64,000 nucleotides of DNA, from the NCBI GenBank assembly GCA_036146215.1, contig JAYYJN010000079.1, positions 1,928-65,927 on the forward strand. The letters run 5' to 3'. The notes below the pieces were generated by a model. The model was given only the letters and a program-made list of their open reading frames with translations, did no database searches and was not told the origin of the DNA. This DNA is from Planctomycetota bacterium. GTDB lineage: Bacteria; Planctomycetota; Planctomycetia; Pirellulales; UBA7805. This document shows positions 32,896 through 49,243 of the stretch, piece after piece (the stretch's first letter is position 1; every line of letters starts with the position of its first letter). The position numbers were made by a program, and so were the translations under genes.

Positions 32896-32970
32896 AGGAG
32901 TCAGGCGGCTAGAAGAGAGAACACATCGTTAGTTATCTGTGATTGATTACCGAGAGGATAATACAGTTCG

Positions 32971-34971
32971 ATGCACGGAAAAAAACAACTGATCGCTTTT
33001 GCGTTGGGTTTCATTTGCAGTATGCCTGGTATTGGGTTCACCGAAGAGGAAAAATCTTCGAGTCCTGCCGTGACAAAAGAGTGGACCCAATGGGGTGGTG
33101 ATAGTCAGCGGAACAATACACCGGTGGGTAAAAATATTCCCTTGGACTGGTCACCCGGGGAATTTGTTGGCAACCCGGCAGTCTGGCAAGCGGACACGGC
33201 CAAAAATATTAAATGGGTCGCCCGGTTGGGCTCTCAGACTTATGGAAATGCGGTTGTGGCTGGCGATAAAGTATTCGTGGGAACCAACAACAGTGGGGGT
33301 TGGCTGCCCCGGTATCCGGGGAAGGTGGATTTAGGTTGTTTGCTTGCCTTCGATAAGCAGGACGGTTCGTTTCTCTGGCAGGATTCAAGCGAAAAACTTC
33401 GTACAGGTCGCGTGCATGACTGGCCACTGCAGGGGATTTGCTGTGCACCACTCGTCGAGCAGGATCGTCTTTGGTTTGTGACAAGTCGCGGCGAAGTGAA
33501 ATGTTTGGACACCGAAGGTTTTTATGACGATCAGGATGACGGTGTGCCCGCGGGATGGGCCAGAATGTTCGATATCACTAAGAAGTCAGATCCAGCGACT
33601 GACCCGGTAAAAGGCGCCGTGTCGCAGCTTGACGCTGGAGAAATCCCCGAGGTCATTCGGGATGGTTTTGTGAAGGCAGGCTCACCCCTTCCGGAAAAGG
33701 TTCGGGTCACAACCGAAACAGTGGGAAAAAAATGGTCTCTCGTGCCCCTGGCACTGGTAGATGGAGAGGGAGATCGCTTCGAAGTCCGGCTTATAGGCCC
33801 CAAGTTGAGTGGCTTCAAACAAATTACGACTTCCGATAAACAGGAGTCGGATGTTGTCTGGGTCTATGACATGATGAAAGGTTTGGGAATTTCTCAGCAC
33901 AATATGTGCAGTTGTTCTGTAACGTCGGCTGGCGATCTTTTATTTGTGAATACCTCTAATGGCGTCGATGAATCGCATATTCTGCTCCCTTCGCCCGATG
34001 CGCCGAGTTTTCTTGCGATGGATAAAAATTCAGGCGAAGTTCTCTGGACCGACAATTCTCCAGGAATCAATATTTTGCACGGTCAGTGGTCTTCCCCTGC
34101 CTATGCTGTATTGGGTGGGGTTGCTCAGGTTATTTTTGCGGGTGGTGATGGTTGGGTTTATAGCTTTGATCCGCAGGGTGATGGCAACGGGAATTCTAAA
34201 TTGCTCTGGAAATTCGATGCCAATCCCAAGGAATCAAAATGGGAACTCGGCGGACGGGGAACCCGTAATAATGTTATTGCGACCCCAGTCATTTATGATG
34301 ATTTGGTCTACGTTGCGGTCGGGCAGGATCCGGAACATGCCGAAGGCAACGGACATCTCTGGTGCATTGATCCGACCAAGCGTGGTGATGTGAGTCCTAC
34401 CTTGGCATATCACGTCGATAATCCGAATGACACGATTCCACATCGACGTTTGCAAGCGGTCGATCCGAAAAAAGGAGAGGTAGCCCGTGATAATCCCAAC
34501 TCCGCGGTCGTCTGGCATTATGACAAGCAGGATCAAAATCAGGATGGTGAAATCGATTGGGAAGAAGAGATGCATCGGAGTTGTGGCACGGTCGCGATCA
34601 AGGATGGCCTGCTCTATATTTCTGACTTCAGCGGACTCTTTCACTGCCTCGATGCCAAAACCGGTAAAGTGCATTGGACCCATGATATGTTAGCCGCCGC
34701 CTGGGGTTCTCCGTTGATCGTTGATGGCAAAGTCTATATCGGGGATGAAGACGGAGACGTAACCATATTCAAACTCTCTCCAGAGAAAGAGATTCTTTCG
34801 GTCGATGAATATGGAGATTCAGGTCCGATCAATATGGGCAACTCGGTCTATAGCACGCCAATCGTTGCAGATAATGTGCTCTATATCAGCAACAAAACCC
34901 ACCTCTTTGCCATTGCCGAGCAGTCGGAAGAGGATGTGGACGAGCCGTCGACGGACGAGGGCAGCAATTGA
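32971..34971 (+). CDS. Secreted PQQ-like beta-propeller repeat protein
   Basis: Signal peptide, WTQWGGDSQRNN, and repeated blades (DGSFLWQD, SGEVLWTD, TGKVHWTH, VYIGDEDGDVTIF). It is a distant paralog of the upstream gene. Confidence 0.85.
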   Translation: MHGKKQLIAFALGFICSMPGIGFTEEEKSSSPAVTKEWTQWGGDSQRNNTPVGKNIPLDWSPGEFVGNPAVWQADTAKNIKWVARLGSQTYGNAVVAGDKVFVGTNNSGGWLPRYPGKVDLGCLLAFDKQDGSFLWQDSSEKLRTGRVHDWPLQGICCAPLVEQDRLWFVTSRGEVKCLDTEGFYDDQDDGVPAGWARMFDITKKSDPATDPVKGAVSQLDAGEIPEVIRDGFVKAGSPLPEKVRVTTETVGKKWSLVPLALVDGEGDRFEVRLIGPKLSGFKQITTSDKQESDVVWVYDMMKGLGISQHNMCSCSVTSAGDLLFVNTSNGVDESHILLPSPDAPSFLAMDKNSGEVLWTDNSPGINILHGQWSSPAYAVLGGVAQVIFAGGDGWVYSFDPQGDGNGNSKLLWKFDANPKESKWELGGRGTRNNVIATPVIYDDLVYVAVGQDPEHAEGNGHLWCIDPTKRGDVSPTLAYHVDNPNDTIPHRRLQAVDPKKGEVARDNPNSAVVWHYDKQDQNQDGEIDWEEEMHRSCGTVAIKDGLLYISDFSGLFHCLDAKTGKVHWTHDMLAAAWGSPLIVDGKVYIGDEDGDVTIFKLSPEKEILSVDEYGDSGPINMGNSVYSTPIVADNVLYISNKTHLFAIAEQSEEDVDEPSTDEGSN

Positions 34972-34972
34972 T

Positions 34973-35449
34973 CTAGGAATCGATTTCTGCGATTGCCTGC
35001 AGCACCTCCTGATCATGTCCGTCTACCCGAACACGACGCCAGATTTTCGCAAAGCGTCCTTTGGCATCAATCAGAAAAGTGCTGCGCACGATCCCCATCG
35101 TTTTTTTACCGTACATATTCTTTTCACGCCACGCCCCATACTTCTCTGCAACTTTGTGTTCACGGTCGACCAATAAAGGAAAATTCAGCTTATACTTCTT
35201 GCGGAATTTTTCGTGATCCTCCTGGCTATCCGGGCTAATGCCGACGATCTGCACGCCCAATTTCTTAAATTTCTGTTTCTGATCCCGAAAGGCACAGGCC
35301 TCCTTCGTGCAACCAGGAGTGTCGTCCTTTGGATAAAAATAAATTACGACTGGATTGCCCTTGGACTCACTCAGTTTCCACTTTGATCCATCATTTGCTT
35401 CTAGCGTGAATTGTGGAGCTTTATCGCCCTCTTCCGGCCACTCACCCAT
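34973..35449 (-). CDS. bcp: Thioredoxin-dependent peroxiredoxin Bcp
   Basis: APQFTLEANDGSKWKLSESKGNPVVIYFYPKDDTPGCTKEACAFRD is the Bcp/PrxQ active-site context. 158 aa. Confidence 0.9.
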   Translation of the reverse strand: MGEWPEEGDKAPQFTLEANDGSKWKLSESKGNPVVIYFYPKDDTPGCTKEACAFRDQKQKFKKLGVQIVGISPDSQEDHEKFRKKYKLNFPLLVDREHKVAEKYGAWREKNMYGKKTMGIVRSTFLIDAKGRFAKIWRRVRVDGHDQEVLQAIAEIDS

Positions 35450-35507
35450 AACAGCGCCTTTCTATTTTATGTTGCAATTTCGAGCCAAGACAATTGTGTA
35501 TTGTTTT

Positions 35508-36965
35508 TCACCCACCCCATTTTTCAAGATACCTGGTGGTACGATACTTCCTCGCAGTGTTTTCGGAACTCATGTAACGTATTTTTCCGAAGATCGGACG
35601 CTCCGGTCCCCAGGCTCGGTCGTATCGGCCAAGGACCCAGAAAATCCCGCTATAAGAATTAGGGTCCCGCCCATCGACCGCATATTTGTTGTTTAAATGA
35701 ATCATCGTCTTCAGTGCCTCTTGCGGACTTGCAGACCATTCCAGAATCTTCTTACCCCACAACATTCGAAGATAATTGTGGACCTTACCTGACTGGGCCA
35801 ATTGCCTCTGTGCGGCGTTCCATAGCGGATCGTGGGTTTCGGCTGCATCGAACGAGTCTTGATCATAAAGATATGCTCTCGGATCATTTGCATGTTGTTG
35901 CAAAGTTTTTTTCGCCCAGTCGGGCAATGAGCTGTACCGTTCATAATCATTTCGATGAAAACACATATTAAAACCTAATTCACGCCAAGTGATGAGCTGA
36001 TCGAGAATCGCTTCTGTGTTTTCATCCACTCCCCACCATCCATCTCGAGACCCGGTCGTCGAGTCAGATAAATTATCCACGCCCCACGAGGCCCGCTGCA
36101 TGAGCCGATCAAAAATCAAGTGACTGCTGATGTGCCCAAAGTGTAGATAGGGTGAGAGGCCGCTGGATCCATCCTCCTCAGGAAGGTTTCGCATCGAGGC
36201 ATACGCATCCAATCGTTGGTCAATAAATCTCTTCAAACATTCCTCCGCGGCATGCGAGCCACCCGGAATTGTGACCGGCTGGACAGAGTGATCGATCGGA
36301 AAATTTTTGAGAGAGATTTTTGAAGGGGGGCGGGTGAGTTCCGGCCACCGCTCGCAGATTGAATCATCGAGCGTCACAGATCCGACGGTTTCTGACGACG
36401 GCATGGGATCGGCATCAGGTAAGACGTTCAGATGCGGCCGCAGATTTTTTTGGAGAAATCGCCGAAAATCATATGCCCGAGCGAAACACTTTTCCGTTCC
36501 AGCCATCGGAAAAATTCCATTGGAGTCGATCAACTCACACTTTTTCGGCAGTCGTTTCGTGACACGCCGCAACATCCGAGCTAGAAAAAACGCCGGATAG
36601 TCGTCTGTCACGACCACTGCGGCGTGGCTTGCCAGCGCATCGATCAGCCCATCTCCCGCACCTCGCGACGGTTCCAGATAGGCCCGATATTCAATTCCTT
36701 TTTTACGGCACTTGCGATCGTTTTCGAGCATCCCATCAATAATGAATCGATGGAACCGATCCGATGCCCAAGGATAGTCACAGCTCAGTGACTCTACGAT
36801 AAGTAACGGTTTTCGCAACTCGCGCGACCAATCGAGTGCCCGTTGAAGGCCGAAATTCCAATTGACTCGACGATGCGCAACCATCCAATAGAGAATATAG
36901 TCTCCATTTGGATCAACGGCTTGGGCATTGCCGCAGCGAATGCGATCTTGCGGAAAATCACGCAC
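35508..36965 (-). CDS. phr: Deoxyribodipyrimidine photolyase (class II CPD type)
   Basis: YILYWMVAHRRVNWNFGLQRAL..., SGLSPYLHFGHISS and NNKYAVDGRDPNSYSGIFWVLGRYDRAWGPERPIFGKIRYMS are class II photolyase blocks. Confidence 0.9.
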   Translation of the reverse strand: MRDFPQDRIRCGNAQAVDPNGDYILYWMVAHRRVNWNFGLQRALDWSRELRKPLLIVESLSCDYPWASDRFHRFIIDGMLENDRKCRKKGIEYRAYLEPSRGAGDGLIDALASHAAVVVTDDYPAFFLARMLRRVTKRLPKKCELIDSNGIFPMAGTEKCFARAYDFRRFLQKNLRPHLNVLPDADPMPSSETVGSVTLDDSICERWPELTRPPSKISLKNFPIDHSVQPVTIPGGSHAAEECLKRFIDQRLDAYASMRNLPEEDGSSGLSPYLHFGHISSHLIFDRLMQRASWGVDNLSDSTTGSRDGWWGVDENTEAILDQLITWRELGFNMCFHRNDYERYSSLPDWAKKTLQQHANDPRAYLYDQDSFDAAETHDPLWNAAQRQLAQSGKVHNYLRMLWGKKILEWSASPQEALKTMIHLNNKYAVDGRDPNSYSGIFWVLGRYDRAWGPERPIFGKIRYMSSENTARKYRTTRYLEKWGG

Positions 36966-36996
36966 AACTTTGATTCCTTGCCGGGGCGAGCGTCAA

Positions 36997-38043
36997 TTAC
37001 CGAGCGTGCTCCAGAAGGTAGTGACCAACCTTCCAATCTCGCCCGTTTGAAAAACGAAACAATTCAGCACATGCCATAAAAAACATTCGCCAGCGATGGA
37101 ACTGTAGTTTCGCCAAATCAGCTGGCAAGTGCTGGTGAAGGACATTGAATACCTGTTGCTTATTCAGGTCTTGGTGCAAAATCCAGTCTTCACATGTTTT
37201 GGCATAGTGATTTCCATCAATGGCCCATTGGCGAGCAACGCGTAGATCATCGCTAAAGTAGGAAAAAATATCTTCAGACGGCATGATGCCACCTGTGAAA
37301 AAGTGTTTTGCCATCCAATCTTTCTCGGAATCGGTTTCGAAGAGATATGCAAATAAACGATGGCAAAAAATATGAACAAATAGCTTTCCATCCGATTTCA
37401 GCCATCCTGCAACCCGCGCGAGTAATTGATGATAATTGCGCATGTGCTCAAACATCTCAATTGAGATCACGCGATCAAACCGCTCTTCAATGTTAAAGTC
37501 CGTCAGGTTTTTGGTCAGCACGGTGATCTGCTGGATTCCGCTCTTACGAGCTTGCGCGTCAATGTATTCTTTCTGACTCGCAGAATTAGATACGGCGACG
37601 ATACGAGTCCCCGGAAATCGCTCCGCAATCCAGAGACTCAATGAGCCCCATCCGCATCCCAGTTCCAAAATCGACATCCCGTCACGAATGCCTGCTCGTT
37701 GGCACGTCAATTCTAGCATTGCCTCTTCAGCCTCGGCTAAGCATTCATTCCCATTTGGATACAAGCAACAGCTGTATTTCATTCTGGGGCCGAGAATTAA
37801 CTTGAACATTTCGGCGGGCATTTCATAATGTTGACGATTCGCATCCTCTGTCTGTACAGCAATCGGATCATTTTTACGGTTGGCATAGAAAGATCTCTTG
37901 TCGCTTTTGCCCGATCCATTTTGCTGCTTGATTCGGTCGCGCAACAAACGACGAATACCATGACGAACAATAAAATCAGGTATCCAACCACGCTCGGCCA
38001 AATCTATACCAATCACTCTACGAAATCCTTTTTGGGCCACCAC
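36997..38043 (-). CDS. Cyclopropane-fatty-acyl-phospholipid synthase family SAM-dependent methyltransferase (short form)
   Basis: QHYEMPAEMFKLILGPRMKYSCCLY, SAM motif ILELGCGWGSLSLWIAE and ISIEMFEHMRNY (CMAS family). A GTG start overlaps the upstream gene's 3' end by about 30 nt. Confidence 0.85.
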   Translation of the reverse strand: MVAQKGFRRVIGIDLAERGWIPDFIVRHGIRRLLRDRIKQQNGSGKSDKRSFYANRKNDPIAVQTEDANRQHYEMPAEMFKLILGPRMKYSCCLYPNGNECLAEAEEAMLELTCQRAGIRDGMSILELGCGWGSLSLWIAERFPGTRIVAVSNSASQKEYIDAQARKSGIQQITVLTKNLTDFNIEERFDRVISIEMFEHMRNYHQLLARVAGWLKSDGKLFVHIFCHRLFAYLFETDSEKDWMAKHFFTGGIMPSEDIFSYFSDDLRVARQWAIDGNHYAKTCEDWILHQDLNKQQVFNVLHQHLPADLAKLQFHRWRMFFMACAELFRFSNGRDWKVGHYLLEHAR

Positions 38044-38801
38044 GGGATGAATGCACTCGTCGTCTTTTGATACTTTCGGTAATCGTCGCCCCGGCTCGCA
38101 ATCGCTTGCGCCTCAGTCGGAGGAATTCCTGTTTTGTAAACCAAGGTGTATAGCAGCAACAGCGGTAAAACAATGGCGACCCACCAGTAGGAATTTCCAA
38201 TTGAAAAAGGTAGCCAGCACCACCAAAGAACCCACTCAAAAAAGTAATTCGGGTGCCGTGTGTAGTACCACAGCCCGGCTCTACATGTCTTGCCATGGTT
38301 TTGCTTGTTTTGCTTGAACTGATTTAATTGAGAGTCAGCAATCGCAACTCCCAAGAAGCCGAACAGCCAGATTGCAATTCCAAAAATATCGCAGATCCCA
38401 AAGTGACCTTTATTCCAGCATGCCACGAGCAGGGGAAGCACGAAGAGCAGGATGGCAACAGCCTGAATTTGAAAAAAACAAAATAGCCACCGATTCGCCG
38501 CTGTCCCCCACTTCTTCCTCAGTGTGGCATAACGACTTTCTTCGGCATGTCCTCGCATACGACGAAAAAGATAAAATGTGAGGCGAAATGACCAGATACC
38601 AATAAGAATAGCGGCAGTGAAACGTCGTGAAAGATCACCCCCTGATGAGATCGCACAAAAAATACCACTCACCCCGATTCCACTCGCCCAGCCAAGATCG
38701 ACAATCCCAGCGTTTTTTCGAACCAATTGGATGCACCACAAAAGCACCATGAGGGAGCATGCAAAGATCGTAATCAAAATAATTTGTATTGCGGGAGTCA
38801 T
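38013..38801 (-). CDS. DUF1295 family membrane protein (steroid 5-alpha-reductase / ICMT-like fold)
   Basis: Polytopic membrane protein with GLWYYTRHPNYFFEWVLWW, the DUF1295 signature. ATG 38801 is preceded by GGAGGATACTGAA (a strong SD), which I prefer to the track start 38828. Confidence 0.8.
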   Translation of the reverse strand: MTPAIQIILITIFACSLMVLLWCIQLVRKNAGIVDLGWASGIGVSGIFCAISSGGDLSRRFTAAILIGIWSFRLTFYLFRRMRGHAEESRYATLRKKWGTAANRWLFCFFQIQAVAILLFVLPLLVACWNKGHFGICDIFGIAIWLFGFLGVAIADSQLNQFKQNKQNHGKTCRAGLWYYTRHPNYFFEWVLWWCWLPFSIGNSYWWVAIVLPLLLLYTLVYKTGIPPTEAQAIASRGDDYRKYQKTTSAFIPWWPKKDFVE

Positions 38802-38842
38802 TTCAGTATCCTCCACACGTCGGCACACAAGGGAACTGGGGG

Positions 38843-40156
38843 TTATGACGAAGTGGAACCGGATGACTTTTCAAACGCAATGTGTCCGACCTGAATTTTT
38901 CCTTCCGCAAAACCTCCCGCGCCGTAGCACAAATAATAGTCCCATAACCTGAGGAACGGTTCCCCAACATCGAGATTGCGGATAGCAGCGAGGTTTTCAT
39001 GAAATCGCGCACGCCACTCGGTAAGTGTTCGGAAATAGTCTTGGCTGAAATTAGTCGCATTGACGAACCGGAGGTCCCCTGCTTCGGTCGCCTGCCGAAT
39101 TGCTCCCAATGACGGAAGAAATCCCCCGGGAAAAATGAATTGCTGAATAAAATCAGTCGAGCGTCTATATCGTGAATAATCCGTATCGGGCACCGTGATC
39201 GCCTGAATGATGGCTGTTCCCTGTGGCTTAAGCAGTGAAGCACACTTTTCGAAAAAGGTTTTTAAAAAACGGTGCCCGACTGCCTCGATCATTTCGATCG
39301 ACACAAGTTTGTCGAAGGTCCCGTCAAGGTCTCGATAATCCTTACAGACAACATTGATTTTTTCTGCCAAATTTTTTTGCTTAATCTTGTTTTTTACGTA
39401 AGAAAATTGCTTTGCGGAAATTGTGGTCGTTGTGACTCGACAACCATAATTTTCAGCGGCGAAAAGTGCAAAGCCGCCCCATCCGGTGCCTATCTCCACG
39501 ACGTGATCGTCGGAAGAGAGATGCAACGCCTCAGCAATCACACGATATTTTTGCATCGACGCTTCCCAAAGGCTACTCTCCGGTCGATCGAAAATACCGC
39601 AGGAATATGTCATCGATGAATCAAGAAAGAGGCTGAAAAATTCGTTCCCCAAGTCGTAATGTGCGGCGATATTTTTTCGACTTCCCTTTTTTGAATTCGG
39701 GTGCAATCGAGATGCGATCCAGTAGTACCATTGCTTGATTCGTGCAAGTCCGTGATTAATTTGTCGTAAATAACCTTCGTTTTTTGCAAAGAGCCGAATT
39801 ACGCCAATCAAGTCAGGAGTGGACCAGTCTCCATCAATGAACGCTTCAGAGGCACCGATTGCTCCACCTAATGCCAAACGTCTATAGCAACGCGGATTGT
39901 GAATGATGATTTCCGTCCCGGGACCATTCTGATCACCAAAGACACGGATCGTTTCCGTTTCCCTTATCGTTAGATGTCCATGTTGAATTTTGGAAAATTG
40001 TGCAAACAATCGGCGTCGAAAAAATGAAGTGCATCTCGATGGGCGGCTATCGTGCGAGACCATTGTCTGTGGCTGTGATGCAACCATGTCAACGTTGATA
40101 CCTACACGTTCTGCGCTGTTTTTGGGTGCGGATAAAAGGGGAGCTTTTTTTTCCAT
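38843..40156 (-). CDS. Cyclopropane-fatty-acyl-phospholipid synthase family SAM-dependent methyltransferase (long form)
   Basis: AHYDLGNEFFSLFLDSSMTYSCGIF, VVEIGTGWGGFALFAAE, VSIEMIEAVGHRF and a C-terminal YLCYGAGGFAEGKIQV block. An alternative start at ATG 40087 would remove the 55-nt overlap with the upstream gene. Confidence 0.85.
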   Translation of the reverse strand: MEKKAPLLSAPKNSAERVGINVDMVASQPQTMVSHDSRPSRCTSFFRRRLFAQFSKIQHGHLTIRETETIRVFGDQNGPGTEIIIHNPRCYRRLALGGAIGASEAFIDGDWSTPDLIGVIRLFAKNEGYLRQINHGLARIKQWYYWIASRLHPNSKKGSRKNIAAHYDLGNEFFSLFLDSSMTYSCGIFDRPESSLWEASMQKYRVIAEALHLSSDDHVVEIGTGWGGFALFAAENYGCRVTTTTISAKQFSYVKNKIKQKNLAEKINVVCKDYRDLDGTFDKLVSIEMIEAVGHRFLKTFFEKCASLLKPQGTAIIQAITVPDTDYSRYRRSTDFIQQFIFPGGFLPSLGAIRQATEAGDLRFVNATNFSQDYFRTLTEWRARFHENLAAIRNLDVGEPFLRLWDYYLCYGAGGFAEGKIQVGHIAFEKSSGSTSS

Positions 40157-40863
40157 AATCGAAATGCCTGATGGTAAATGGCCGTCACAATTTGAATTGT
40201 TAATAAAGGATAGCGTATTTGCATCCTTCGCAGGGTTGCGCGATTCAGTGCCCGACGCTGCAACTCCAATCCAGCGTGAAATAGTACTTGGTTTTGATGG
40301 ATGCTACGGATGCCAACGCACAGTTTCTCGCGAGGTATACCAATAGACCAGTCGTATATGTGATCCATGCTCATAAAAGGGGAGACGTGAAATGCTTTTT
40401 GGTGTCTGTATTTTAGTGCGTTGCCGCTTGAAAGTTGGTTCCCTTCCCAAAGAACGTACAGATGCTTCTCGTTCCAGGGAGTATTACTTACTTCGGCGAC
40501 AATTGCGATTAGCGTGGTGCCGTCCGCTTCGAAGCAGTAATACATGTTGAGTGGGCTAAAATAGTAACCCCAGGTTCGTAATTGTGTCAGCAGGCGTATG
40601 GGCCCATTGACCGAAATACCAGTTTTTGAATAAACCAGCTTTTTGATCGACTCGGATAGTCGCTCCCTCGGGTTTCCGAAGTGATCAGAACGTAGAAAAG
40701 AAGTCCACGCAAAACGCTCTCGGCGAATCCATTCTTTCGGACATGCGTGGTCTAACTCATCGAGGTCAAGATACGCCATATAGAGGCGATACTTGAATGC
40801 ATGGTCTCGGGGATGAAATCTCCGATGCTTAAGCATGCCTTCATAAAGATAGCTTTTTAGCAT
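40102..40863 (-). CDS. DUF1365 family protein
   Basis: MLKSYLYEGMLKHRRFHPRDHAFKYRLYMAYLDLDEL is the typical DUF1365 N-terminus. ATG 40863 overlaps the upstream TAA by 1 nt (TAATG). The track start 40884 is probably too long. Confidence 0.85.
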   Translation of the reverse strand: MLKSYLYEGMLKHRRFHPRDHAFKYRLYMAYLDLDELDHACPKEWIRRERFAWTSFLRSDHFGNPRERLSESIKKLVYSKTGISVNGPIRLLTQLRTWGYYFSPLNMYYCFEADGTTLIAIVAEVSNTPWNEKHLYVLWEGNQLSSGNALKYRHQKAFHVSPFMSMDHIYDWSIGIPREKLCVGIRSIHQNQVLFHAGLELQRRALNRATLRRMQIRYPLLTIQIVTAIYHQAFRLWKKKLPFYPHPKTAQNV

Positions 40864-42146
40864 TAGAGTTCTTTCCCAAAACATTTGGCAACGGTCAGAC
40901 CGCTTCGGAGCCCATCTTCATGAAAACCAAACCCCCAGTAAGCACCGCAGAAAAATGATCTATTTTTTCCATTGATTTCCTGCTGTCGCTCCTGCGTTGC
41001 AAGTGTCCCAGTTGAAAAAACCGGATGTCGATAACGTATTCTTTCTATCACGTGCCGATCGGAAATCATGCGGGTCGGATTCAAGGTAACACACAATGGG
41101 CGGGAGCACCCAAGTTTCTGCAGCCGATTGATATCATAGGTTACCGATGCAGGAGCAGTTGGTTCCTCGCCGACATGGTAGTTCCAACTGGCCCATGCGC
41201 GATGGCGATTTGGAAGCCAGCTATGATCGGTATGCAAGATTGCATCGTTTTGCTGATAATCGAATTGACTAAGAATTTCTGTTTCTAAATTCGTCGGATT
41301 GGCAATAAGCTTAAGCGTAGTATCGGCATGCGTTGCAAAAATCACCCGATCAAATTCAAAAGCACCTTCATCCCGCGTTTGAATCTCAACCCGGTCGGCG
41401 GACCGATCAACGCGTACAACCGGACAGTCGACTCGAATTGATTTTTTAAATTCCTTCGTCATAGCCTCGACGTACCGCTGTGCACCGCCGGGAATGGTGT
41501 ACCATTGAGGGCGATTGCGAATCTGTAGCAACCCATGATTGTTCAGGAACGCAACAAGAAAGTTTAAAGGAAATGCGAGAAATCGGTCGGCCCTGGCAGA
41601 CCAGATCGATGCACCGAGTGGCACGAGATAATTTTGGATAAAGAAATCACTATAACAATTTTCCTTTAAATAGCTCTGGAGGGTGAGACTGTCACCACAA
41701 CTTTGCAGGGCGAGTGGGGCTTCCCGATTAAACCGTCTAATATCGAGGAGCATTCTGTAAAAAGCCGGACGCAACACATTGGATCGCTGTGCGAAAAGGC
41801 CGTTTATTGAACTGCCCGAGTATTCCAGATTGCTACGCTCGCAACACACACTAAAGCTCATATCACTTTTTTGAGCTTTGATACCGAGTCGATCTAGTAA
41901 TTTGACAAAGCAAGGGTAGGTACGCTGATTGTAAACCATAAATCCCGTGTCGACGCGAAGTTGCCTCTGCTCAAATTCAATGGCGTGCGTGTGGGTATGC
42001 CCCCCGTTATGCGAATCTGATGTGAAAAGTGTGATGTCATGGTCGTTGTGGAGCAGATATGCACACGCATTTCCACTGATACCGCCTCCGATGATTGCGA
42101 TTCGCAGGCGTTGGTCAGGAGCCAGTGACATATCAGAGTGCTCCAT
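40863..42146 (-). CDS. FAD/NAD(P)-binding amine-oxidase / phytoene-desaturase-like oxidoreductase
   Basis: N-terminal Rossmann dinucleotide motif RIAIIGGGISGNACAYLL, and a C-terminal FCGAYWGFGFHEDG block typical of this family. Confidence 0.85.
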   Translation of the reverse strand: MEHSDMSLAPDQRLRIAIIGGGISGNACAYLLHNDHDITLFTSDSHNGGHTHTHAIEFEQRQLRVDTGFMVYNQRTYPCFVKLLDRLGIKAQKSDMSFSVCCERSNLEYSGSSINGLFAQRSNVLRPAFYRMLLDIRRFNREAPLALQSCGDSLTLQSYLKENCYSDFFIQNYLVPLGASIWSARADRFLAFPLNFLVAFLNNHGLLQIRNRPQWYTIPGGAQRYVEAMTKEFKKSIRVDCPVVRVDRSADRVEIQTRDEGAFEFDRVIFATHADTTLKLIANPTNLETEILSQFDYQQNDAILHTDHSWLPNRHRAWASWNYHVGEEPTAPASVTYDINRLQKLGCSRPLCVTLNPTRMISDRHVIERIRYRHPVFSTGTLATQERQQEINGKNRSFFCGAYWGFGFHEDGLRSGLTVAKCFGKEL

Positions 42147-42175
42147 CCGCTAGAAGGCCTTCGACTGAGAGGGAG

Positions 42176-43102
42176 TCAAGCCTTAAAAATGTTTGTGACG
42201 CACGACTCAAGATCTTGCATGTGGTCACAATATGCGGTGCAATCCATTCTACTACGCACATCATCGGTAAGCGCGTTGCCGCCCATAATGATCGCCAATT
42301 GACTTCCTGCCGATTTGCGAAGTTGCTCATATTCAGAGAAAAAAGTTTCCTGTTTTATAATTGCTGAGACGCTAAGCCATAAAAGTTTGGGATTATATCT
42401 TTCAAGCGCCTTTTCAATGGTAGCAAATGGCAGGGAGACTCCTAAAGATACCGCGTTCCAGCCGAGTTCTCGAAGAATTAATTCAGCCATGCGATTTGCA
42501 ATCCGATAGCTATCTCCTGCGGGAGTGGCACCAATAGCGTACGGGGATCGTTCATTTGGAATCGGTAGATAAGATCGAAGTTCGATTAAAATGCTTTCAC
42601 AAATTTCGCCAGCACGGCGCTCCTGATAGATGTCCAAATTCCCATTCCGCCATTTCGAGCCGATCTGTGCGAAGCTGGGAGCGATCAGCTCATCAAATAT
42701 GCGTCCCAATCTTTCGTTTCCCAGATAGAGATCAAAAATTAATCGTCGGCAGACTTCATCTTTCCCATCAATGAGTGCTTGAGTGAGTCGGTCCACACAC
42801 GGCTCTGTGAAATTGATCTGTTTTGCTTTTCCGGCGGGAAGACCTAGCAATTCGGGCTCGGCCAGGTGGCGGTCGGATTTGCGGATGAACGCTACTACGT
42901 CCGCCGGATTCAAACGACGATGACCACCTTCAGTCCGCGACATCGGAATTAATCCCTGATCGCACCAGCGCTTTAACGAAGACTCACTCACCCCGATCGC
43001 TTTGGCGACCTGCTTTGGAGATACCGTCTTGGGAGCAGAGGAAACTGGGTTCTGTAGAGACATACCGCGGGCCTGGAACATATAAATGAACGTTTTGACC
43101 AT
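42176..43102 (-). CDS. MerR-type HTH regulator with a cobalamin-binding-like C-terminal domain (LitR/CarH-like)
   Basis: HTH VSPKQVAKAIGVSESSLKRWCDQGLIP. A helical-bundle region is followed by a Rossmann-like B12-binding-domain pattern AIGATPAGDSYRIANRMAELILRELGWNAVSLGVSLP...LLWLSVS...IIMGGN. The start may be an internal Met (43063). Confidence 0.75.
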   Translation of the reverse strand: MVKTFIYMFQARGMSLQNPVSSAPKTVSPKQVAKAIGVSESSLKRWCDQGLIPMSRTEGGHRRLNPADVVAFIRKSDRHLAEPELLGLPAGKAKQINFTEPCVDRLTQALIDGKDEVCRRLIFDLYLGNERLGRIFDELIAPSFAQIGSKWRNGNLDIYQERRAGEICESILIELRSYLPIPNERSPYAIGATPAGDSYRIANRMAELILRELGWNAVSLGVSLPFATIEKALERYNPKLLWLSVSAIIKQETFFSEYEQLRKSAGSQLAIIMGGNALTDDVRSRMDCTAYCDHMQDLESCVTNIFKA

Positions 43103-43234
43103 TTTTATGCCATAAAGGGGTCTTTGCCAATGGAAACAAATGTTTAATTCTGGAAAAATAGAGTTTTAGCGATAAAAATCACCGATTAGCGAATTAAGAC
43201 AGGTTGGTTCGCAGTATGCCCCGGACCAAACCCT

Positions 43235-43248
43235 TGAGACGGGTCTCA
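43235..43248. promoter_or_regulatory. Palindrome TGAGAC-GG-GTCTCA in the divergent promoter region; candidate operator
   Basis: Read directly from the sequence. It lies in the 201-bp interval between the regulator gene (minus strand) and the SRPBCC-SDR gene (plus strand). No functional evidence. Confidence 0.25.
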
Positions 43249-43303
43249 CAGCCAAACCCCTCTGAAGAGCTATTTGCGGACATAGAATCAAAGGAGTCTG
43301 TTT

Positions 43304-44716
43304 TTGATGGCCGGCCCACTGACACAATGCCGCTTCCCGGTAGCCCTTCCGGTCGCCCCTTCTGAGGCTTTTGCCTGGCATCAACGGCCTGGTGCTCTCG
43401 CCCGACTACTTCCGCCCTGGGAAAATATTCAGGTGCTGCGAAGGGCGGCCAATATCGATGTTGGGAGTCAGGTGGAATTTCTCACGCGCGTGGGACCTTT
43501 TCCTTTGCGGTGGCTCGCAGAACACACGGCCTGCTGCCCGCCGGAATATTTTGAAGATGTGCAGCTTCACGGACCTTTCAAGCATTGGCGACACCGGCAT
43601 CAATTTAGAGAAATGCCTGACGGAAAAACAATCCTCGAGGATCAATTGGAGTATAGCCTACCGGGCGGTCGGTGCGGTGCTTGGATTGCAAGACAATCGG
43701 TTGAAAAGAAAATTGAGAGAATGTTTGCTTTTCGACACGCTGTGACCCGTGCTGACCTTCAATCCCATGCTCGCTATCACAATCGCCAGCGGATTGCAGT
43801 AGGCATTACCGGTGCAGACGGTCTGGTGGGCAGTGCACTGACGGCATTTCTCACTACTGGTGGCCATAGCGTGACGGCAATCTGTCGTTCGCTGAGGGAT
43901 ACGGCTGCCCCAGAAAAAATTGTATGGAACCCAGGGTTTGATCAGGAATTGGATCATGCGTCTCATCGATGGGATGCGGTTATCCATCTGGCCGGGGAGA
44001 ATATCGCTCATCGTCGATGGACCGCAAAGCAAAAACGTGAAATATGGACTAGTCGTGTTGAAAGGACGCGCAGTTTTTGCGAGTCATTGGTATCTTTGCC
44101 CAAACGACCGTCTGTGTTGCTTGCTGCTTCTGCAACTGGATTTTATGCCGATTCGAGTACGACAGAAATTTCTTCGGAGGATGCACCGCAAGGAGAGGGG
44201 TTCTTAGCGGAATTAGCAGCAGCTTGGGAGGAGGCTTGTCGACCAGCAATCGAGGCTGGAATCCGAGTGGTGCACTTGCGATTCGGGATGGTTTTATCGC
44301 CTCGTGGTGGTGCACTTCGTGCAATGCTTCCGGTATTTCGCACCGGTATGGGTGGTAGGGTTGGCGCGGGAAACCAAATTTGGAGTTGGGTTTCATTGGA
44401 TGATGCCGTGGGTGCGATCCATCACGCTTTGATGGAGTCGGATATACGGGGGCCGCTAAACGTTGTTTCCCCTCAGCCGGTCACCAATGCACAGTTTACC
44501 GAGAAATTGGCTCGGGCGTTGCATCGCTGGGCTCCGGTTCCGCTGCCCGGCGGTATGGCAAAGATCTTTCTGGGGGAAATGGCCGACGCGATGTTGTGTT
44601 CCAGCATCCGCGCTACTCCGGAAAAATTATGCGACACTGGTTATGAATTCCGTGCTTCAGAATTGGATCACGCGCTGGATCACATGTTCGGTCTTGCGAG
44701 GGCATCTCGCAAATAA
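43304..44716 (+). CDS. Fusion protein: SRPBCC (polyketide-cyclase-like) domain plus TIGR01777/YfcH-type NAD-dependent epimerase/SDR with DUF1731
   Basis: The N-terminal ~150 aa are SRPBCC-like (HGPFKHWRHRHQF). Then IAVGITGADGLVGSALTAFL (Rossmann), HLAGENIAHRRWT and the C-terminal DUF1731 block. Confidence 0.85.
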   Translation: MMAGPLTQCRFPVALPVAPSEAFAWHQRPGALARLLPPWENIQVLRRAANIDVGSQVEFLTRVGPFPLRWLAEHTACCPPEYFEDVQLHGPFKHWRHRHQFREMPDGKTILEDQLEYSLPGGRCGAWIARQSVEKKIERMFAFRHAVTRADLQSHARYHNRQRIAVGITGADGLVGSALTAFLTTGGHSVTAICRSLRDTAAPEKIVWNPGFDQELDHASHRWDAVIHLAGENIAHRRWTAKQKREIWTSRVERTRSFCESLVSLPKRPSVLLAASATGFYADSSTTEISSEDAPQGEGFLAELAAAWEEACRPAIEAGIRVVHLRFGMVLSPRGGALRAMLPVFRTGMGGRVGAGNQIWSWVSLDDAVGAIHHALMESDIRGPLNVVSPQPVTNAQFTEKLARALHRWAPVPLPGGMAKIFLGEMADAMLCSSIRATPEKLCDTGYEFRASELDHALDHMFGLARASRK

Positions 44717-44768: not shown

Positions 44769-45518
44769 CTATTTTGCGAACGCACCGCTTCGTGGCCGTA
44801 CGCCGCCGTAATATCTCAGAATAGACCATGCGTTTGCCTCTCCGGTATCGCTTCGCTTGATTAGCAGTCGCACAAAAAAGGTTTTCTTTTTCAAGGGCGT
44901 CTCAAGGTAGCTCACTGTAAAAAGGCTCGTAATAATTTGGTTTTGTCTATCAGAACGAACATCCTCTGTTTGAAAAAAATTAGACCTTGCACGTCCATTG
45001 AGGGCGAGCAAGCATTTTACCAGTCGTTGGTTTTCAAATTTATGCAACTCGGTTTGCCCCTTCGCCGTTGTTTGATAGTAGTGCGCAAGTTGTCTTTCTG
45101 AGAGTCGGATATCAGGTTCAGTCAATGCGGACAACGCTCTTTCAGGTTTACCGGAGAGAATATTTTTTATCCAAGCATTTCCAAAGAGTTCGGCTTGTCG
45201 GGTAATTGCCATCTTCCGTAAATAATATTGCGTGGGGGCGTACGAGATTGTCAGCAAACTAAGGCAGAGGCCTCCGACTGCCAGTAAGCGAACGATAAAT
45301 GGCGGGTGGCATCGATTGAAATAGATCATAATGAGCGTGCAGCCAAGGAATCCCATCCCGCCACAGATCCACCAGGTAGGCCCGATAAGGGCACAAAGAG
45401 AAAAAGCTCCTAACAAAGTCGCCAGGAACCCCAAGCTAAAAAGCCTAAATAAATACTCGGGTGAGGCGGACGGGCAGTCTGACGAAAAATCTGCGCTGCT
45501 AGGGGAAGGCTCACTCAT
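44769..45518 (-). CDS. Hypothetical membrane protein (three N-terminal helices plus a soluble domain)
   Basis: 249 aa. Hydrophobic segments LFSLGFLATLLGAFSLCALI, WWICGGMGFLGCTLIMIYF and IVRLLAVGGLCLSLLTI. No recognisable domain. It starts 34 nt after the CvpA-like gene on the same strand. Confidence 0.55.
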   Translation of the reverse strand: MSEPSPSSADFSSDCPSASPEYLFRLFSLGFLATLLGAFSLCALIGPTWWICGGMGFLGCTLIMIYFNRCHPPFIVRLLAVGGLCLSLLTISYAPTQYYLRKMAITRQAELFGNAWIKNILSGKPERALSALTEPDIRLSERQLAHYYQTTAKGQTELHKFENQRLVKCLLALNGRARSNFFQTEDVRSDRQNQIITSLFTVSYLETPLKKKTFFVRLLIKRSDTGEANAWSILRYYGGVRPRSGAFAK

Positions 45519-45552: not shown

Positions 45553-46215
45553 CTACTTACCAGCCGTTAACGTCGGTTCTTGAATTATTCCGCTACCCCA
45601 GGTTCTTTGAACACGCAGTGCAGGAAGTGTTTCAAGCGTACCACGTCGAGCGCCATAAGTCAGAATAAATGTTCCCTTCGGATCGAAAACGTGCGAGGAG
45701 GGTGTTTCCGGATTCACGGGGCGGGCAAAGCTACCTTGCGAAGTCTTTTGCATCAGCGCTAACCAGTGTCTGTCGGGCGCGAACCAAAGCATTCGACTTT
45801 CGGGAGTCGACTGAAAATTTCCGCCAAAAGAATTCACGGCGAGAGGGGCTAAGTGAAGTGAAGTTGCTACAAGAGAGATCAGGATCCAACCAGTCCAGAG
45901 ACCAAAAAAGAATCCACCGGTCAGGTCGACCAGTTTAATAAAGCGAACGCGTACCCTCGATAGTCGTAGAGTTAGCAGCCTGATTGCGAGACTGAAGCCG
46001 GTGAAAATTGCCCAGAACGCGAGAAAATCGACAAAGTAACTGAAACTTGGCATCCAGATATCGAGTTGCAAAGCCACCGGTTCAAAAAAGTTCATCGTCA
46101 AAGTTCCCGCAAATAGCACGTTGAAGAACGTGAGCAGGCTGTGCCAGAGTCCATCCTTTCCGATCTCGGCAATCACGGCGAGCATAATCAACGTAAACAG
46201 GATAGCTAAAATCAT
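45553..46215 (-). CDS. CvpA-like (colicin V production family) integral membrane protein
   Basis: Four hydrophobic helices. The pattern ...GKDGLWHSLLTFFNVLFAG... and DLTGGFFFGLWTGWILISLV resembles the CvpA blocks G.vRGf.rE and D..lG..fG..rG. Its start overlaps the upstream stop (ATGA). Confidence 0.55.
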   Translation of the reverse strand: MILAILFTLIMLAVIAEIGKDGLWHSLLTFFNVLFAGTLTMNFFEPVALQLDIWMPSFSYFVDFLAFWAIFTGFSLAIRLLTLRLSRVRVRFIKLVDLTGGFFFGLWTGWILISLVATSLHLAPLAVNSFGGNFQSTPESRMLWFAPDRHWLALMQKTSQGSFARPVNPETPSSHVFDPKGTFILTYGARRGTLETLPALRVQRTWGSGIIQEPTLTAGK

Positions 46216-48107
46216 TTTTTCAGTGACCTTTGCAGCTCTTCCACAGAGGTAATTCCCCTTGCGACAAGTAATTTCCCATGATCAAGCTCTGTATGCATGC
46301 CTGTTTTGCGCGCCACTTTTTTCAGATCATCGATGTTCGGTTTTCCACTGACCAAAATCTTTTGAATGTCCTGATTCATGTGCAGCACTTCATAGATGCC
46401 AGTGATACCGTGATACCCGATTCCTTCACAAACCTCACAAATGGCTTCACCTTCAGGTGACGCTGCTCGGTACAGATTCTCTGCACGTTCGGGCGGGATC
46501 CCCAATCTTTTCAATAGCTCAGGTGAAGGTCGATAAGAGACTTTACACTCAGGACATAATTTCCGAATCAACCTGCCATGAACCACTGTAGTGATGGAAC
46601 CGGCAACCAATTCGGGAGGAACTTTTATCACAAGCACACGGAGTAATGCCTCCAGGCTATCACGGGCAGCGATCGAACTTATGACAAGAAAATCCGTCAT
46701 CGCAAGTTCACACAGCATGTGTGCCGATTGTGGATCCGCCATCTTCCGGCAGACAATCACATCAGGTTGTGCACGGGATACAGCGGGCAAACAATCAACG
46801 GGCCGCTCACCTGCAGAAGAGTCGTAGTTTTTCGGATCGACATTTGCAATTTCTGGTTCTGGCGATTCAGAATCTTCTACGCTGACAAAGTCGCGCATGT
46901 ATCGATCCACACTCTCCAGTCCAATGTTGATGAGAGTGGTAAGCCCGCCGGCGGGCAGCGCGGAAAATAAGATCATCCCTTTTGTGTTTTGCAAGGCGGT
47001 CGTAACTTCCTCTGCCGTTTTTTTACGCATTCCGAGGTCGACCAGGGAATGCAAATGGTCAGCAGATCGCTCAAAAGCGATGAGCCACCGCTCAACGTTT
47101 TCGCCCTTTGCAAGCGTGAGTTTGCAGGTGACGGTTTCCTCCCATTTTCCATGAAACCGATTGCGACTTGCCTGCATGTGATCGAGTTTTATCGAATCAC
47201 CGTCGGAGTCAATCATTTTGGAAAATGTTGCTGAAAAATCAGCTTCACTGCTCCGTACAAACGATGACTGCTCCGGATCGTTAGGGTCGGTTGCAAGGGT
47301 CGAAAGTACCTCGGTAATCTGTCGGCCTGTTTCAACCGAATGGGAGGGTAGATTATGCCAAACTCCATCGATCAGATAACGAATACCCATTTGTTCAGCA
47401 AAATCAAGAAGCACTTGACTTGCTCTCCGGTCTAATGCGTCGCCGAACAATTCGGTCGTCGCGGTATATCCCTCAAGTTGCCGAGCCAGAATTGTTTGCG
47501 ACTGTTTGTCCCGCTTCGCCGGATTCAGGTCTGCAAACAGATCAACTTCAGGCCCCAGATGGTCCTCCAGTCGCAACGGATCCTCGGCATTTATCTGGAT
47601 GCCCAAGTAGCGCAAATTTTTAGACGCTAAAAATTTTAGGTGCTCGGGCGTCAACACGCGCTGATGCTCTTCGACCAACGGGTTGCGGTAGTAAAATACG
47701 TAACTTAATGTAGGAGCGGCGAGGGCAACGAAAAGCAAAAAAAATGCCGGCCAAAAATAAGGAATCACCCACATCATTAAGAGTGCAAATGCGAAACAAC
47801 CGACAACAATTGGATTCCATGTGTTTCTTCTCAGGCGATGATAAAGCAGATCTTGGTTAATCCAGTCAGCCGCCCGAACCCATAGAAGAAATAGCGCAAA
47901 GCACGCCGATATCCTGAAAATGCTGAAATAGAATCCGGGACCACGGAACGTGTCTGGATCGATCCACTGTGGATCAGGCCAGGTTGCTTGTTGAGAGAGC
48001 GCGATATTTTCCTGAGCAAAAGCCTCCAATGACGAGAGGAGAAACAACCCTAATCCAATCGAAAAGGTTTTGAGTGAAAATATATTTTCAGAATATGGTT
48101 GTTGCAT
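46212..48107 (-). CDS. Membrane-anchored GspE/PilB-like protein with degenerate ATPase motifs (predicted pseudo-ATPase)
   Basis: 631 aa. The N-terminal 150 aa hold a signal-like segment plus three TM helices. The C-terminal part is colinear with T2SS/T4P ATPases and includes CPECKVSY...CEVCEGIGYHGITGIYEVL. Walker A reads ALPAGGLTT, Walker B reads PDVIVCRKMAD and the His box reads TDFLVISSIAAR. Confidence 0.8.
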   Translation of the reverse strand: MQQPYSENIFSLKTFSIGLGLFLLSSLEAFAQENIALSQQATWPDPQWIDPDTFRGPGFYFSIFRISACFALFLLWVRAADWINQDLLYHRLRRNTWNPIVVGCFAFALLMMWVIPYFWPAFFLLFVALAAPTLSYVFYYRNPLVEEHQRVLTPEHLKFLASKNLRYLGIQINAEDPLRLEDHLGPEVDLFADLNPAKRDKQSQTILARQLEGYTATTELFGDALDRRASQVLLDFAEQMGIRYLIDGVWHNLPSHSVETGRQITEVLSTLATDPNDPEQSSFVRSSEADFSATFSKMIDSDGDSIKLDHMQASRNRFHGKWEETVTCKLTLAKGENVERWLIAFERSADHLHSLVDLGMRKKTAEEVTTALQNTKGMILFSALPAGGLTTLINIGLESVDRYMRDFVSVEDSESPEPEIANVDPKNYDSSAGERPVDCLPAVSRAQPDVIVCRKMADPQSAHMLCELAMTDFLVISSIAARDSLEALLRVLVIKVPPELVAGSITTVVHGRLIRKLCPECKVSYRPSPELLKRLGIPPERAENLYRAASPEGEAICEVCEGIGYHGITGIYEVLHMNQDIQKILVSGKPNIDDLKKVARKTGMHTELDHGKLLVARGITSVEELQRSLKK

Positions 48108-49243
48108 TACAGCAATCCACCCTGGGCAACATCAATCCCTTTCAGCACCATCTTTAGTTGTTGCCTGTTTGGAGAGACCTCCATGGCTACGTCCTGAGAG
48201 ATGAGTGCCTGATCAATCAGACTTTTCAGAGACATGTTAAAATCCTGCATGCGATCTTGTGATCCAAGCCGCACCGCATCAGAGAGTTTTTCATCCTCTT
48301 CTTCGATGACCAATTTGCGGATCATACTGTTCATAATTAAGACTTCCACCGCCGGTACACGGGAACAATCTTTGGAAATCGAAGGTAGTAATTTCTGTGC
48401 TACGATTGCCTTTAGGTTTGTTTCCAACGCACTTCTCAGTGAGGCATGCATGTCTTGCGGGAAGAGATCCAAGATGCGGTTGATCGTCGACGCGGCGCTC
48501 GAAGCGTGAATGGTGCCAAAAACCAGGTGCCCAGTCTCTGCGGCGTGGATGGCTGTCTGAAAAGTTTCCCGGTCTCGCATTTCTCCGACCAGCATGACAT
48601 CTGGATCCTCGCGCACCGCATGCTTCATTCCCAACTCAAAGTTTTTGACGTCGATGCCTATTTCCCGTTGATTGATTAGACATTTGTGTTCATGGAACAA
48701 AAACTCAATGGGATCTTCGAGCGTAAGGATGTGTTTTCGGTAATGATCGTTGATCCAATTCAGCATCGAGGCGATCGTAGTGCTTTTTCCCGAACCGGTG
48801 ACGCCCGCAACTAGAATCAGCCCCTGGTCATATTGGCAAAGGTCTTCGATCACATCCGGCAAATGCAGGCCTTTAAAATCGGGAATCGCATTGTTTACGC
48901 GGCGTGCAACCATTCCAACGTGGCCCATCTGCGTGAGCATATTCACGCGAAACCGCCATTGCACTCCGTCGACATCAATCATATGCGCAAAATCAGCGCC
49001 GCCTTCCGCTTCAAAGATTTCCCGATTTCTTTCGTCCATAAGCGGGTAGCAAAGGTCGCGCATCTCAAGCGAACCAATCGGGTCGTGCTTTAGCGGACGG
49101 AGTGAACCGGCAACTCGGACATAAGGAGGCTGACCCACCTTAAGATGTAGGTCACTGCCATCAAGTTTCACCACCGCCCTAAATATTTTGTCGACCGATA
49201 GATCGGTGGAGCGGTCAAGTTTCAGTGAAGGGTCGGTTGCCAT
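48107..49243 (-). CDS. pilT: Type IV pilus retraction ATPase PilT family
   Basis: GSDLHLKVGQPPYVRVAGSL, Walker A AGVTGSGKSTTIASM, Asp box ILTLEDPIEF, Walker B DPDVMLVGEMRD, His box TGHLVFGTIHASSA and a PilT-like MIRKLVIEE helix. Confidence 0.9.
   Translation of the reverse strand: MATDPSLKLDRSTDLSVDKIFRAVVKLDGSDLHLKVGQPPYVRVAGSLRPLKHDPIGSLEMRDLCYPLMDERNREIFEAEGGADFAHMIDVDGVQWRFRVNMLTQMGHVGMVARRVNNAIPDFKGLHLPDVIEDLCQYDQGLILVAGVTGSGKSTTIASMLNWINDHYRKHILTLEDPIEFLFHEHKCLINQREIGIDVKNFELGMKHAVREDPDVMLVGEMRDRETFQTAIHAAETGHLVFGTIHASSAASTINRILDLFPQDMHASLRSALETNLKAIVAQKLLPSISKDCSRVPAVEVLIMNSMIRKLVIEEEDEKLSDAVRLGSQDRMQDFNMSLKSLIDQALISQDVAMEVSPNRQQLKMVLKGIDVAQGGLL

Follow-up and report, generated by a model that had tools for sequence, protein, structure and literature searches.

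A planctomycete gene block pairing a candidate furan fatty acid biosynthesis trio with a photolyase and a LitR/CarH-like regulator

Gene content and junctions of the trio

The 64,000-nucleotide stretch of marine planctomycete DNA analyzed here, hereafter the window (contig JAYYJN010000079.1 of GenBank assembly GCA_036146215.1, positions 1,928 to 65,927), carries a block of eight same-strand genes (34973–43102 in window coordinates, minus strand) that includes three candidate genes for furan fatty acid biosynthesis. The initial annotation had described three consecutive minus-strand genes at 38843–42146, in a planctomycete, as encoding a flavin adenine dinucleotide (FAD)-dependent amine oxidase, a DUF1365 protein and a cyclopropane fatty acid (CFA) synthase-family enzyme. 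Open reading frames (ORFs) and Pfam matches agree with this description, and the GenBank record is a 70-kb contig from a metagenome-assembled genome (MAG) labelled Planctomycetota bacterium. The leading gene of the trio encodes a candidate UfaD-like FAD-dependent fatty-acyl desaturase of 427 aa with an amine-oxidase fold (40863–42146), followed by a UfaO-like DUF1365 protein of 253 aa (PF07103; 40102–40863) and a candidate UfaM-like S-adenosylmethionine (SAM)-dependent fatty-acyl methyltransferase of the CMAS family (PF02353; 38843–40156, start uncertain). The Pfam scores for the four lipid-enzyme ORFs of the block are far above chance. The same proteins are deposited in GenBank (MEC8337060-78) under generic PGAP names only; the DUF1365 protein is an exact sequence match to MEC8337065.1, a “DUF1365 domain-containing protein”.

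The three genes are tightly packed. The proposed TAATG coupling between the FAD oxidase and DUF1365 genes can be read directly at 40861–40865 (GAA CTC TAA TG CTA), where the stop codon of the former overlaps the likely start codon of the latter. The longest DUF1365 ORF spans 40102–40884 (260 aa); because of the TAATG overlap, the ATG at 40863, which yields the 253 aa protein, is the most likely start, and the same start is called in GenBank and in a close relative. The initial annotation also held that the genes overlap. This is borne out between the FAD oxidase and DUF1365 genes, while at the DUF1365/CMAS junction it depends on the start codon: the longest CMAS ORF (437 aa, start at 40156) overlaps the DUF1365 gene by 55 nt, and a later ATG leaves a 14 nt gap instead. 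With alternative ATG starts at 40087 and 40063, the CMAS protein is ~406–437 aa long. Along the entire block, from the regulator gene at its head to the peroxiredoxin gene at its end, the junctions measure 29, −1 (TAATG), −55 or +14, 14, −31, 31, and 58 nt.

Comparison of the trio with UfaD, UfaO, and UfaM

The bacterial pathway with which we compare these genes has been published. UfaM (RSP2144, Q3J4I7) methylates cis-vaccenate chains, the flavoprotein UfaD (RSP1091, Q3IYV7) forms a conjugated 10t,12t diene, and the DUF1365 protein UfaO (RSP1090) takes an oxygen atom from O2 to close the furan ring (Lemke et al. 2020, PMC7380195). The contiguous genes RPA2571-2570-2569 are necessary in Rhodopseudomonas palustris, and sufficient in Rhodobacter (Cereibacter) sphaeroides, for production of the furan fatty acid (FuFA) 9M5-FuFA; RPA2571-2568 were cloned as an operon, and FufM (RPA0924, Q6NBA4) methylates 9M5-FuFA to 9D5-FuFA (PMC7380195). 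Ufa homologues are stated to be spread over the bacterial phylogeny and to extend to eukaryotes, and those of FufM to be confined to a subset (PMC7380195). In R. palustris CGA009, ufaD-ufaO-ufaM belong to the same three families as the trio in the window and lie in the same order on one strand; the CMAS gene in the window is directly downstream of the DUF1365 gene, as is RPA2569 in R. palustris.

The FAD oxidase matches Pfam families PF01593 (Amino_oxidase, E 1.7e-21) and NAD_binding_8, and its best PDB match is the amine oxidase LkcE (148 bits, full length). Its N-terminal GxGxxG-type motif reads RIAIIGGGISG, and the N-terminus of R. palustris UfaD, as deduced from a primer, reads MRVAIVG. 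At the other end of the protein, the C-terminus (GFGFHEDGLRSGLTVA) contains GFGFHEDGL, which matches the peptide FHEDGL encoded by the R. palustris ufaD primer US2569-Rev. The protein lengths are also close, with 427 aa in the window and 433 aa for UfaD (683 minus 250). Compared with other FAD oxidases encoded immediately ahead of a DUF1365 gene, the window protein shares 39–50% identity with those of nine unrelated loci and 92% with that of the close relative (locus L011).

The DUF1365 protein scores 248 bits against a cut-off of 25, covering profile positions 1–234 of 235 in PF07103, and at 253 aa it is nearly the size of UfaO (250 aa; RSP1090, Q3IYV8). We found 1842 homologues, many of them planctomycetal, and an alignment of 64 homologues contains 39 invariant columns. 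An AlphaFold2 model built from the same 64 homologues is beta-rich with a pLDDT of 89. A sequence search of the PDB gave no match for this protein, and a Foldseek search of the PDB with the model returned nothing significant; the best E-value was 0.02, with TM-scores of at most 0.41, to calycin, nitrobindin, and lipocalin barrels. Since these barrel likenesses are non-significant, neither a cofactor nor a mechanism can be read from them.

The CMAS protein (PF02353, 263 bits) is a CMAS-family member distinct from canonical Cfa, as judged from its sequence. Its scores lie under the NCBIfam cut-offs for Cfa equivalogs (255 vs 600 and 247 vs 400), and by BLASTP it is 38–52% identical to DUF1365-linked CMAS proteins of unrelated loci vs 32% to Escherichia coli Cfa. 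It carries Gln at the position of Cfa His266, the bicarbonate-ligand His, and Ala at that of His240; both replacements are present in all 117 of its closest homologues. The same pair occurs in every DUF1365-linked CMAS protein examined, while Glu239 and Tyr317 are kept. Gln at position 266 is also found in the cotton cyclopropane synthases that are fused to an FAD oxidase. Losing the bicarbonate ligand would fit a methyl-branched olefin as the product. As a sign of a non-cyclopropanating methylase, however, we rejected the replacement of His266 by Gln, as the cotton cyclopropane synthases carry the same Gln.

The arrangement of the trio is conserved well beyond the window. The order FAD oxidase-DUF1365-CMAS, whole or up to the end of the locus, spans Alpha-, Gamma-, and Deltaproteobacteria and other Planctomycetota. 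It is seen in genomes of Rhodospirillales, Acetobacteraceae, Lysobacter, Azorhizobium, Klebsiella, and one member of the Deltaproteobacteria. Its planctomycete carriers are MAGs, some of them from Pirellulaceae, and the cultured Lignipirellula cremea (L016; CP036433.1, cluster at 340799-359596), and two metagenome contigs have it as well. Every related locus with an intact 5′ side keeps this order. An FAD oxidase gene adjoins a downstream DUF1365 gene in ten further loci. Two loci begin at DUF1365-CMAS without an FAD oxidase upstream; in one the contig end cuts it off (L012), and in the other a fatty-acid desaturase gene stands in its place (L015). The trio cluster is common in Planctomycetota, and so are DUF1365 proteins in planctomycete genomes. 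The close relative L011 (~91% protein identity) retains the whole block.

Several of these loci have neighbors of their own. A gene for a membrane fatty-acid desaturase (PF00487) closely precedes the FAD oxidase gene in Lignipirellula (L016:6870-7748) and the DUF1365 gene in L015 (5270-5971), hinting at a lineage-specific unsaturated substrate; the block in the window contains no fatty-acid desaturase gene. In one Pirellulaceae MAG, genes for an extracytoplasmic function (ECF) sigma factor and a 207-aa neighbor follow the trio (L012:2577-3805), and in another a sigma-70-like gene heads the operon (L019:5269-6243); the cluster thus appears to be regulated differently in different members of the phylum. 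The Klebsiella pneumoniae locus (L021; NZ_CP129856.1, 508400-523098) encodes, in turn, a MerR regulator, an NTF2-like protein, a short-chain dehydrogenase/reductase (SDR), an FAD oxidoreductase, a DUF1365 protein, and a CFA-synthase family protein, and continues with DUF2878, a hypothetical protein, DUF3833, and DUF523+DUF1722. That record describes a linear “plasmid” of 550 kb, which may be chromosomal sequence.

A DNA-level comparison was possible through the published R. palustris ufaD primer. Its 20-mer (GTTCCATGAGGACGGGCTTC) has an exact match in the ufaD-like genes of six loci, from Rhodospirillales, Acetobacteraceae, Lysobacter, and Azorhizobium genomes (L002, L003, L005, L006) and two metagenome contigs (L007, L009), and in each of these a DUF1365 gene follows the ufaD-like gene. 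The 20-mer finds other ufaD loci because it encodes the conserved FHEDGL, and the exact matches mean that in these high-GC genomes the FHEDGL codons are conserved unusually well even as DNA. Two further metagenome contigs that match the 20-mer (L008, L010) show no similarity to the window proteins. The scan of genome contigs with the 20-mer returned four ufaD loci and no Rhodopseudomonas record, a 29-mer from the 3′ end of ufaO had no match in metagenome contigs, and the primer-deduced N- and C-terminal peptide tags of R. palustris and R. sphaeroides were absent from the metagenome loci matching the 20-mer.

The remaining genes of the block and its regulator

Downstream of the trio, the block continues with a gene for a DUF1295 membrane protein of the steroid-5-alpha-reductase/ICMT-like type (PF06966, 216 bits; 38013–38828) and a gene for a FufM-like methyltransferase candidate of 348 aa (PF02353, 143 bits; 36997–38043). 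The latter belongs to the coclaurine N-methyltransferase (CNMT)-like branch of the CMAS superfamily: it scores 247 bits against the Coptis CNMT (PDB 6gkv; 37% identity over 292 residues) vs 101 bits against E. coli Cfa. FufM is itself 37.9% identical to At4g33110, annotated as a putative coclaurine N-methyltransferase, and on this sequence evidence it appears to fall in the CNMT-like branch, as the 348-aa protein does. Homologues with 46–53% identity are encoded beside the trio in an Acetobacteraceae MAG (L003), in another MAG (L013), and in Lignipirellula, and the L011 copy is 91% identical. The FufM-like gene lies inside the ufa block in the window, L011, L003, and L013, and near the trio in Lignipirellula. 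A DUF1295 gene is found within ~5 kb of the trio or of the FufM-like gene in six loci (L003, L006, L011, L014, L016, L019). Thus, a DUF1295 protein of the steroid-5-alpha-reductase-like kind (PF02544 is also matched) is a companion of the trio, the FufM-like methyltransferase, or both, across phyla.

The last two genes of the block encode a class II CPD photolyase of 485 aa (35508–36965; TIGR00591 phr2, 372 bits, E 4e-111), which occupies the same position in L011, and a BCP/PrxQ thioredoxin-dependent peroxiredoxin (34973–35449; AhpC-TSA, 150 bits), which reaches 159 bits on the NCBIfam model NF006960 against a cut-off of 140.

The first gene of the block (42176–43102) encodes a LitR/CarH-family regulator-like protein composed of a MerR/excisionase-type helix-turn-helix (HTH) domain, a B12-binding_2 domain, and a degenerate B12-binding Rossmann domain. 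Pfam scores are 39.8 bits for HTH_17, 30.2 bits for MerR_1, and 32.6 bits for B12-binding_2; the Rossmann domain (B12-binding) scores 27.5 bits, below the Pfam cut-off of 32.1. The best PDB match, at 89 bits, is 8jbs, a “putative cobalamin binding protein”. Like the class I CarH/LitR proteins of Thermus, Myxococcus, and Bacillus, which are photoreceptor-repressors dependent on adenosylcobalamin (AdoB12), the regulator combines a MerR-type HTH at its N-terminus with a four-helix bundle and a Rossmann-like domain, and its gene has photoprotection genes as neighbors. It differs from class I CarH in that Wx9EH reads Wx9ER, and in that the motif bearing the cobalt-ligand His (DxHxxG) reads GDSYRIA, with Tyr at the His position; since both motifs are altered at their His, we did not assign it to class I. 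The replacements are not peculiar to the window: among its homologues, mostly planctomycetal, Tyr is present in 116 of 116 and ER in 115 of 116. This Tyr-variant subfamily, which was no part of the initial annotation, is the most unusual feature that we encountered.

The class II LitR proteins differ in another way. They possess the four-helix bundle only and act with a short light-oxygen-voltage (LOV) protein, whereas the window regulator has both B12-type domains, with the two His residues replaced by Tyr and Arg; no gene for a LOV protein was observed near the block. A gene for the same regulator subfamily is present in the Pirellulaceae MAG L019, divergent from genes for a sigma-70-like protein, FAD oxidase, DUF1365, CMAS, DUF1295, and the UV endonuclease UvdE, and regulators of this type occur away from ufa genes in two other genomes.

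Upstream of the regulator gene, a 201 bp divergent intergenic region (43103–43303) is presumed, by its position, to hold the promoter and operator of the block and of the divergent gene; its only repeat is one 8-nt, A/T-only inverted pair. The divergent gene (43304–44716, plus strand) encodes a fusion of an SRPBCC (lipid-binding) domain with a YfcH/TIGR01777 extended SDR and may be an accessory gene. The fusion protein scores 300 bits on TIGR01777 against a cut-off of 207 and 205 bits on the ThyD model, with Polyketide_cyc and a C-terminal DUF1731 also matched, and its divergent position is kept in L011. SDR genes are likewise found with the trio in R. sphaeroides (RSP1087), Pseudomonas, Klebsiella, and Lignipirellula. 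Further out, a 249-aa ORF (44769–45518, minus strand) without a match in Pfam or NCBIfam has a counterpart at the same position in L011 (253 aa). The flanks at 30610–34971 (plus strand) and 46212–49243 (minus strand) look like ordinary chromosome content; one holds genes for two PQQ-like beta-propeller proteins, and the other has a gene for colicin V production and two for PilT-like ATPases of type II/IV secretion, with histidine-biosynthesis and MoeA genes beyond them.

R. palustris also possesses a CNMT-like second methylase, but its fufM gene (RPA0924) is at a separate locus, directly downstream of RPA0923 as judged from primer junctions, whereas the FufM-like gene in the window is within the block; the R. 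palustris operon is not reported to include a LitR-like gene, a photolyase, or a peroxiredoxin, all three of which the window block has. In R. sphaeroides, ufaD and ufaO are adjacent, ufaM adjoins the photolyase gene phrA (RSP2143-2144), and the genes respond to photo-oxidative stress. RSP1091-1087 encode UfaD, UfaO, a GPH-family symporter (RSP1089), a hypothetical protein, and an SDR, and belong to the singlet-oxygen sigmaE regulon, as phrA and ufaM do. These genes are thus split over two loci under an ECF sigma/anti-sigma pair, in contrast to the single block with a MerR/LitR-type gene at its head in the window, which lacks the GPH transporter and adds the DUF1295 protein, the FufM-like methylase, and the peroxiredoxin.

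A regulatory parallel comes from Pseudomonas, in which LitR-family regulators control a light-induced cluster of phrB, SDR, FAD oxidoreductase, and ufaM genes. In P. putida and P. mendocina the gene for the class II LitR (PplR/PmlR) lies beside this light-induced set, which also includes hypothetical genes, and the Klebsiella cluster described above is of the same kind, with its MerR regulator gene at the head. Plants possess proteins of the same four families, namely AT3G23510 (“UFAM1/UFAD1”), AT1G30130 (DUF1365, “UFAO1”), LIME1 (AT4G33110), and the cyclopropane synthases of cotton and Sterculia. The plant oxidase and methylase, however, are joined in one fusion protein, the products of the cotton enzymes are cyclopropane rings, and the roles of the Arabidopsis proteins have only been hypothesized.

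A model for the block and its alternatives

Taken together, a model for the block emerges, to which we assign a probability of about 0.7: the genes at 34973–43102 constitute a photo-oxidative-stress operon, the core of which builds methylated furan fatty acids on phospholipids already in the membrane. By analogy to R. sphaeroides and R. palustris, we infer the enzymatic activities, substrate, product, and regulation as follows. The UfaM-like CMAS enzyme would use SAM to methylate a cis-monounsaturated acyl chain, yielding a methyl-branched trans-olefin; the UfaD-like FAD oxidase would add a second, conjugated trans double bond; and the UfaO-like DUF1365 protein would insert one oxygen atom from O2 and close the furan ring. 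The FufM-like enzyme may then add a second ring methyl to give a dimethyl furan fatty acid. The photolyase and peroxiredoxin would provide DNA photorepair and peroxide detoxification alongside lipid synthesis. Their shared strand and close spacing with the lipid genes indicate that the block is probably co-expressed, and the LitR/CarH-like gene at its head points to light or photo-oxidative stress as the inducer, in place of control of the Rhodobacter sigmaE-ChrR kind; both co-transcription and light control are thus proposed from spacing and analogy.

The initial annotation had given the roles of UfaM, UfaD, UfaO, and FufM as Lemke et al. 2020 (PMC7380195) describe them, and had named the trio as probable furan fatty acid genes. 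The conserved gene order, the protein lengths, the FHEDGL motif, and the CMAS subfamily all speak for that proposal. Its further suggestion, that the gene at 36997–38043 is a FufM counterpart, gains from the placement of the encoded protein among CNMT-like rather than Cfa-like enzymes. Assignment of the DUF1295 and CNMT-like pair as the FufM equivalent is less secure than that of the trio.

Several observations weigh against the model. Orthology to the Ufa proteins and FufM is argued from family membership, synteny, lengths, and one motif, and the acyl substrate and lipid product proposed for this organism are likewise drawn from analogy. The Gln266 signature of the CMAS protein, common to the cotton cyclopropane synthases, marks an oxidase-associated lineage and not a product. 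In the literature searched there was no report of furan fatty acids in Planctomycetota. The regulator is without both His residues of the B12-dependent CarH proteins, and light sensing by it is therefore putative. Scans of the block and the intergenic region for promoters, terminators, operators, and repeats were at chance level or empty, so the single-transcript model draws on spacing alone.

The most direct challenge concerns the product. The trio could modify unsaturated chains and yet end elsewhere, in a cyclopropane or cyclopropene ring, a methyl-branched olefin, or a conjugated diene, should the substrate or the UfaO-like step be lineage-specific. The cotton cyclopropane synthases, fused to a UfaD-like domain and sharing the His266-to-Gln replacement, lend this some weight, as do the former annotation of RSP1091 and RSP1090 as cyclopropane/cyclopropene synthesis proteins, the fatty-acid desaturase genes ahead of the trio in Lignipirellula and L015, and the fact that DUF1365 chemistry has been established for two alphaproteobacterial enzymes only. 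We nonetheless consider a different product unlikely: a furan fatty acid was the product in both bacteria in which the bacterial trio has been tested, the DUF1365 family is strongly conserved across its homologues, and the presence of a FufM-like gene in the operon is best understood if the encoded enzyme acts on a furan ring. That the FAD oxidase is a generic amine oxidase and the CMAS protein an ordinary cyclopropane fatty acid synthase, brought together by chance, is very unlikely. The generic PGAP names and the amine oxidase LkcE as best solved relative of the FAD oxidase would fit such an account, but the translational coupling, the retention of the three-gene order across several phyla, and the scores of the CMAS protein below the Cfa equivalog cut-offs together with its distinct subfamily signature do not.

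Doubt of another kind attaches to the genes following the trio. The DUF1295 and CNMT-like pair could form a separate module, one that, for example, pairs methylation with reduction of the double bond by NADPH, yielding a saturated methyl-branched lipid, or that carries out some other membrane-lipid modification. The match of the DUF1295 protein to the steroid 5-alpha-reductase family PF02544 and the many loci in which it accompanies the CNMT-like methyltransferase or the trio would be in keeping with such a module, and the CNMT-like branch includes N-methyltransferases acting on unrelated substrates, so that kinship with FufM is argued through the branch. FufM itself, however, appears to be placed in this same branch, and the methyltransferase gene is either inside or close to the ufa genes in all five of the loci named above, the window among them. 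We regard a separate module as possible, if somewhat improbable, and favor a FufM-like role within the furan fatty acid operon.

The regulator invites a more speculative extension of the furan fatty acid model. A planctomycete-specific, Tyr/Arg-variant class of LitR/CarH-like proteins might sense light or oxidative stress without photolysis of AdoB12, by way of base-on B12, another chromophore, or a partner protein, and so couple synthesis of furan fatty acids, perhaps including dimethyl forms, to the repair of DNA photodamage in Planctomycetota. We offer this tentatively and hold it to be rather doubtful. The Tyr-variant family nevertheless poses a small question of its own.

Earlier publications already cover the pathway, how widely it is distributed, its link to photolyase genes, and LitR-type control, and the understanding of the pathway itself is unchanged by the present analysis. 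Because the cultured Lignipirellula cremea has the same gene set, the prediction that Planctomycetota produce these lipids is cheap to test. The arrangement in one block of a regulator, four lipid enzymes, a photolyase, and a peroxiredoxin supports furan fatty acid synthesis as part of a light-stress response. If the model is correct, marine and other Planctomycetota would make methylated furan fatty acids, which in the membrane would scavenge singlet oxygen and radicals, and would constitute a further marine source of these lipids.

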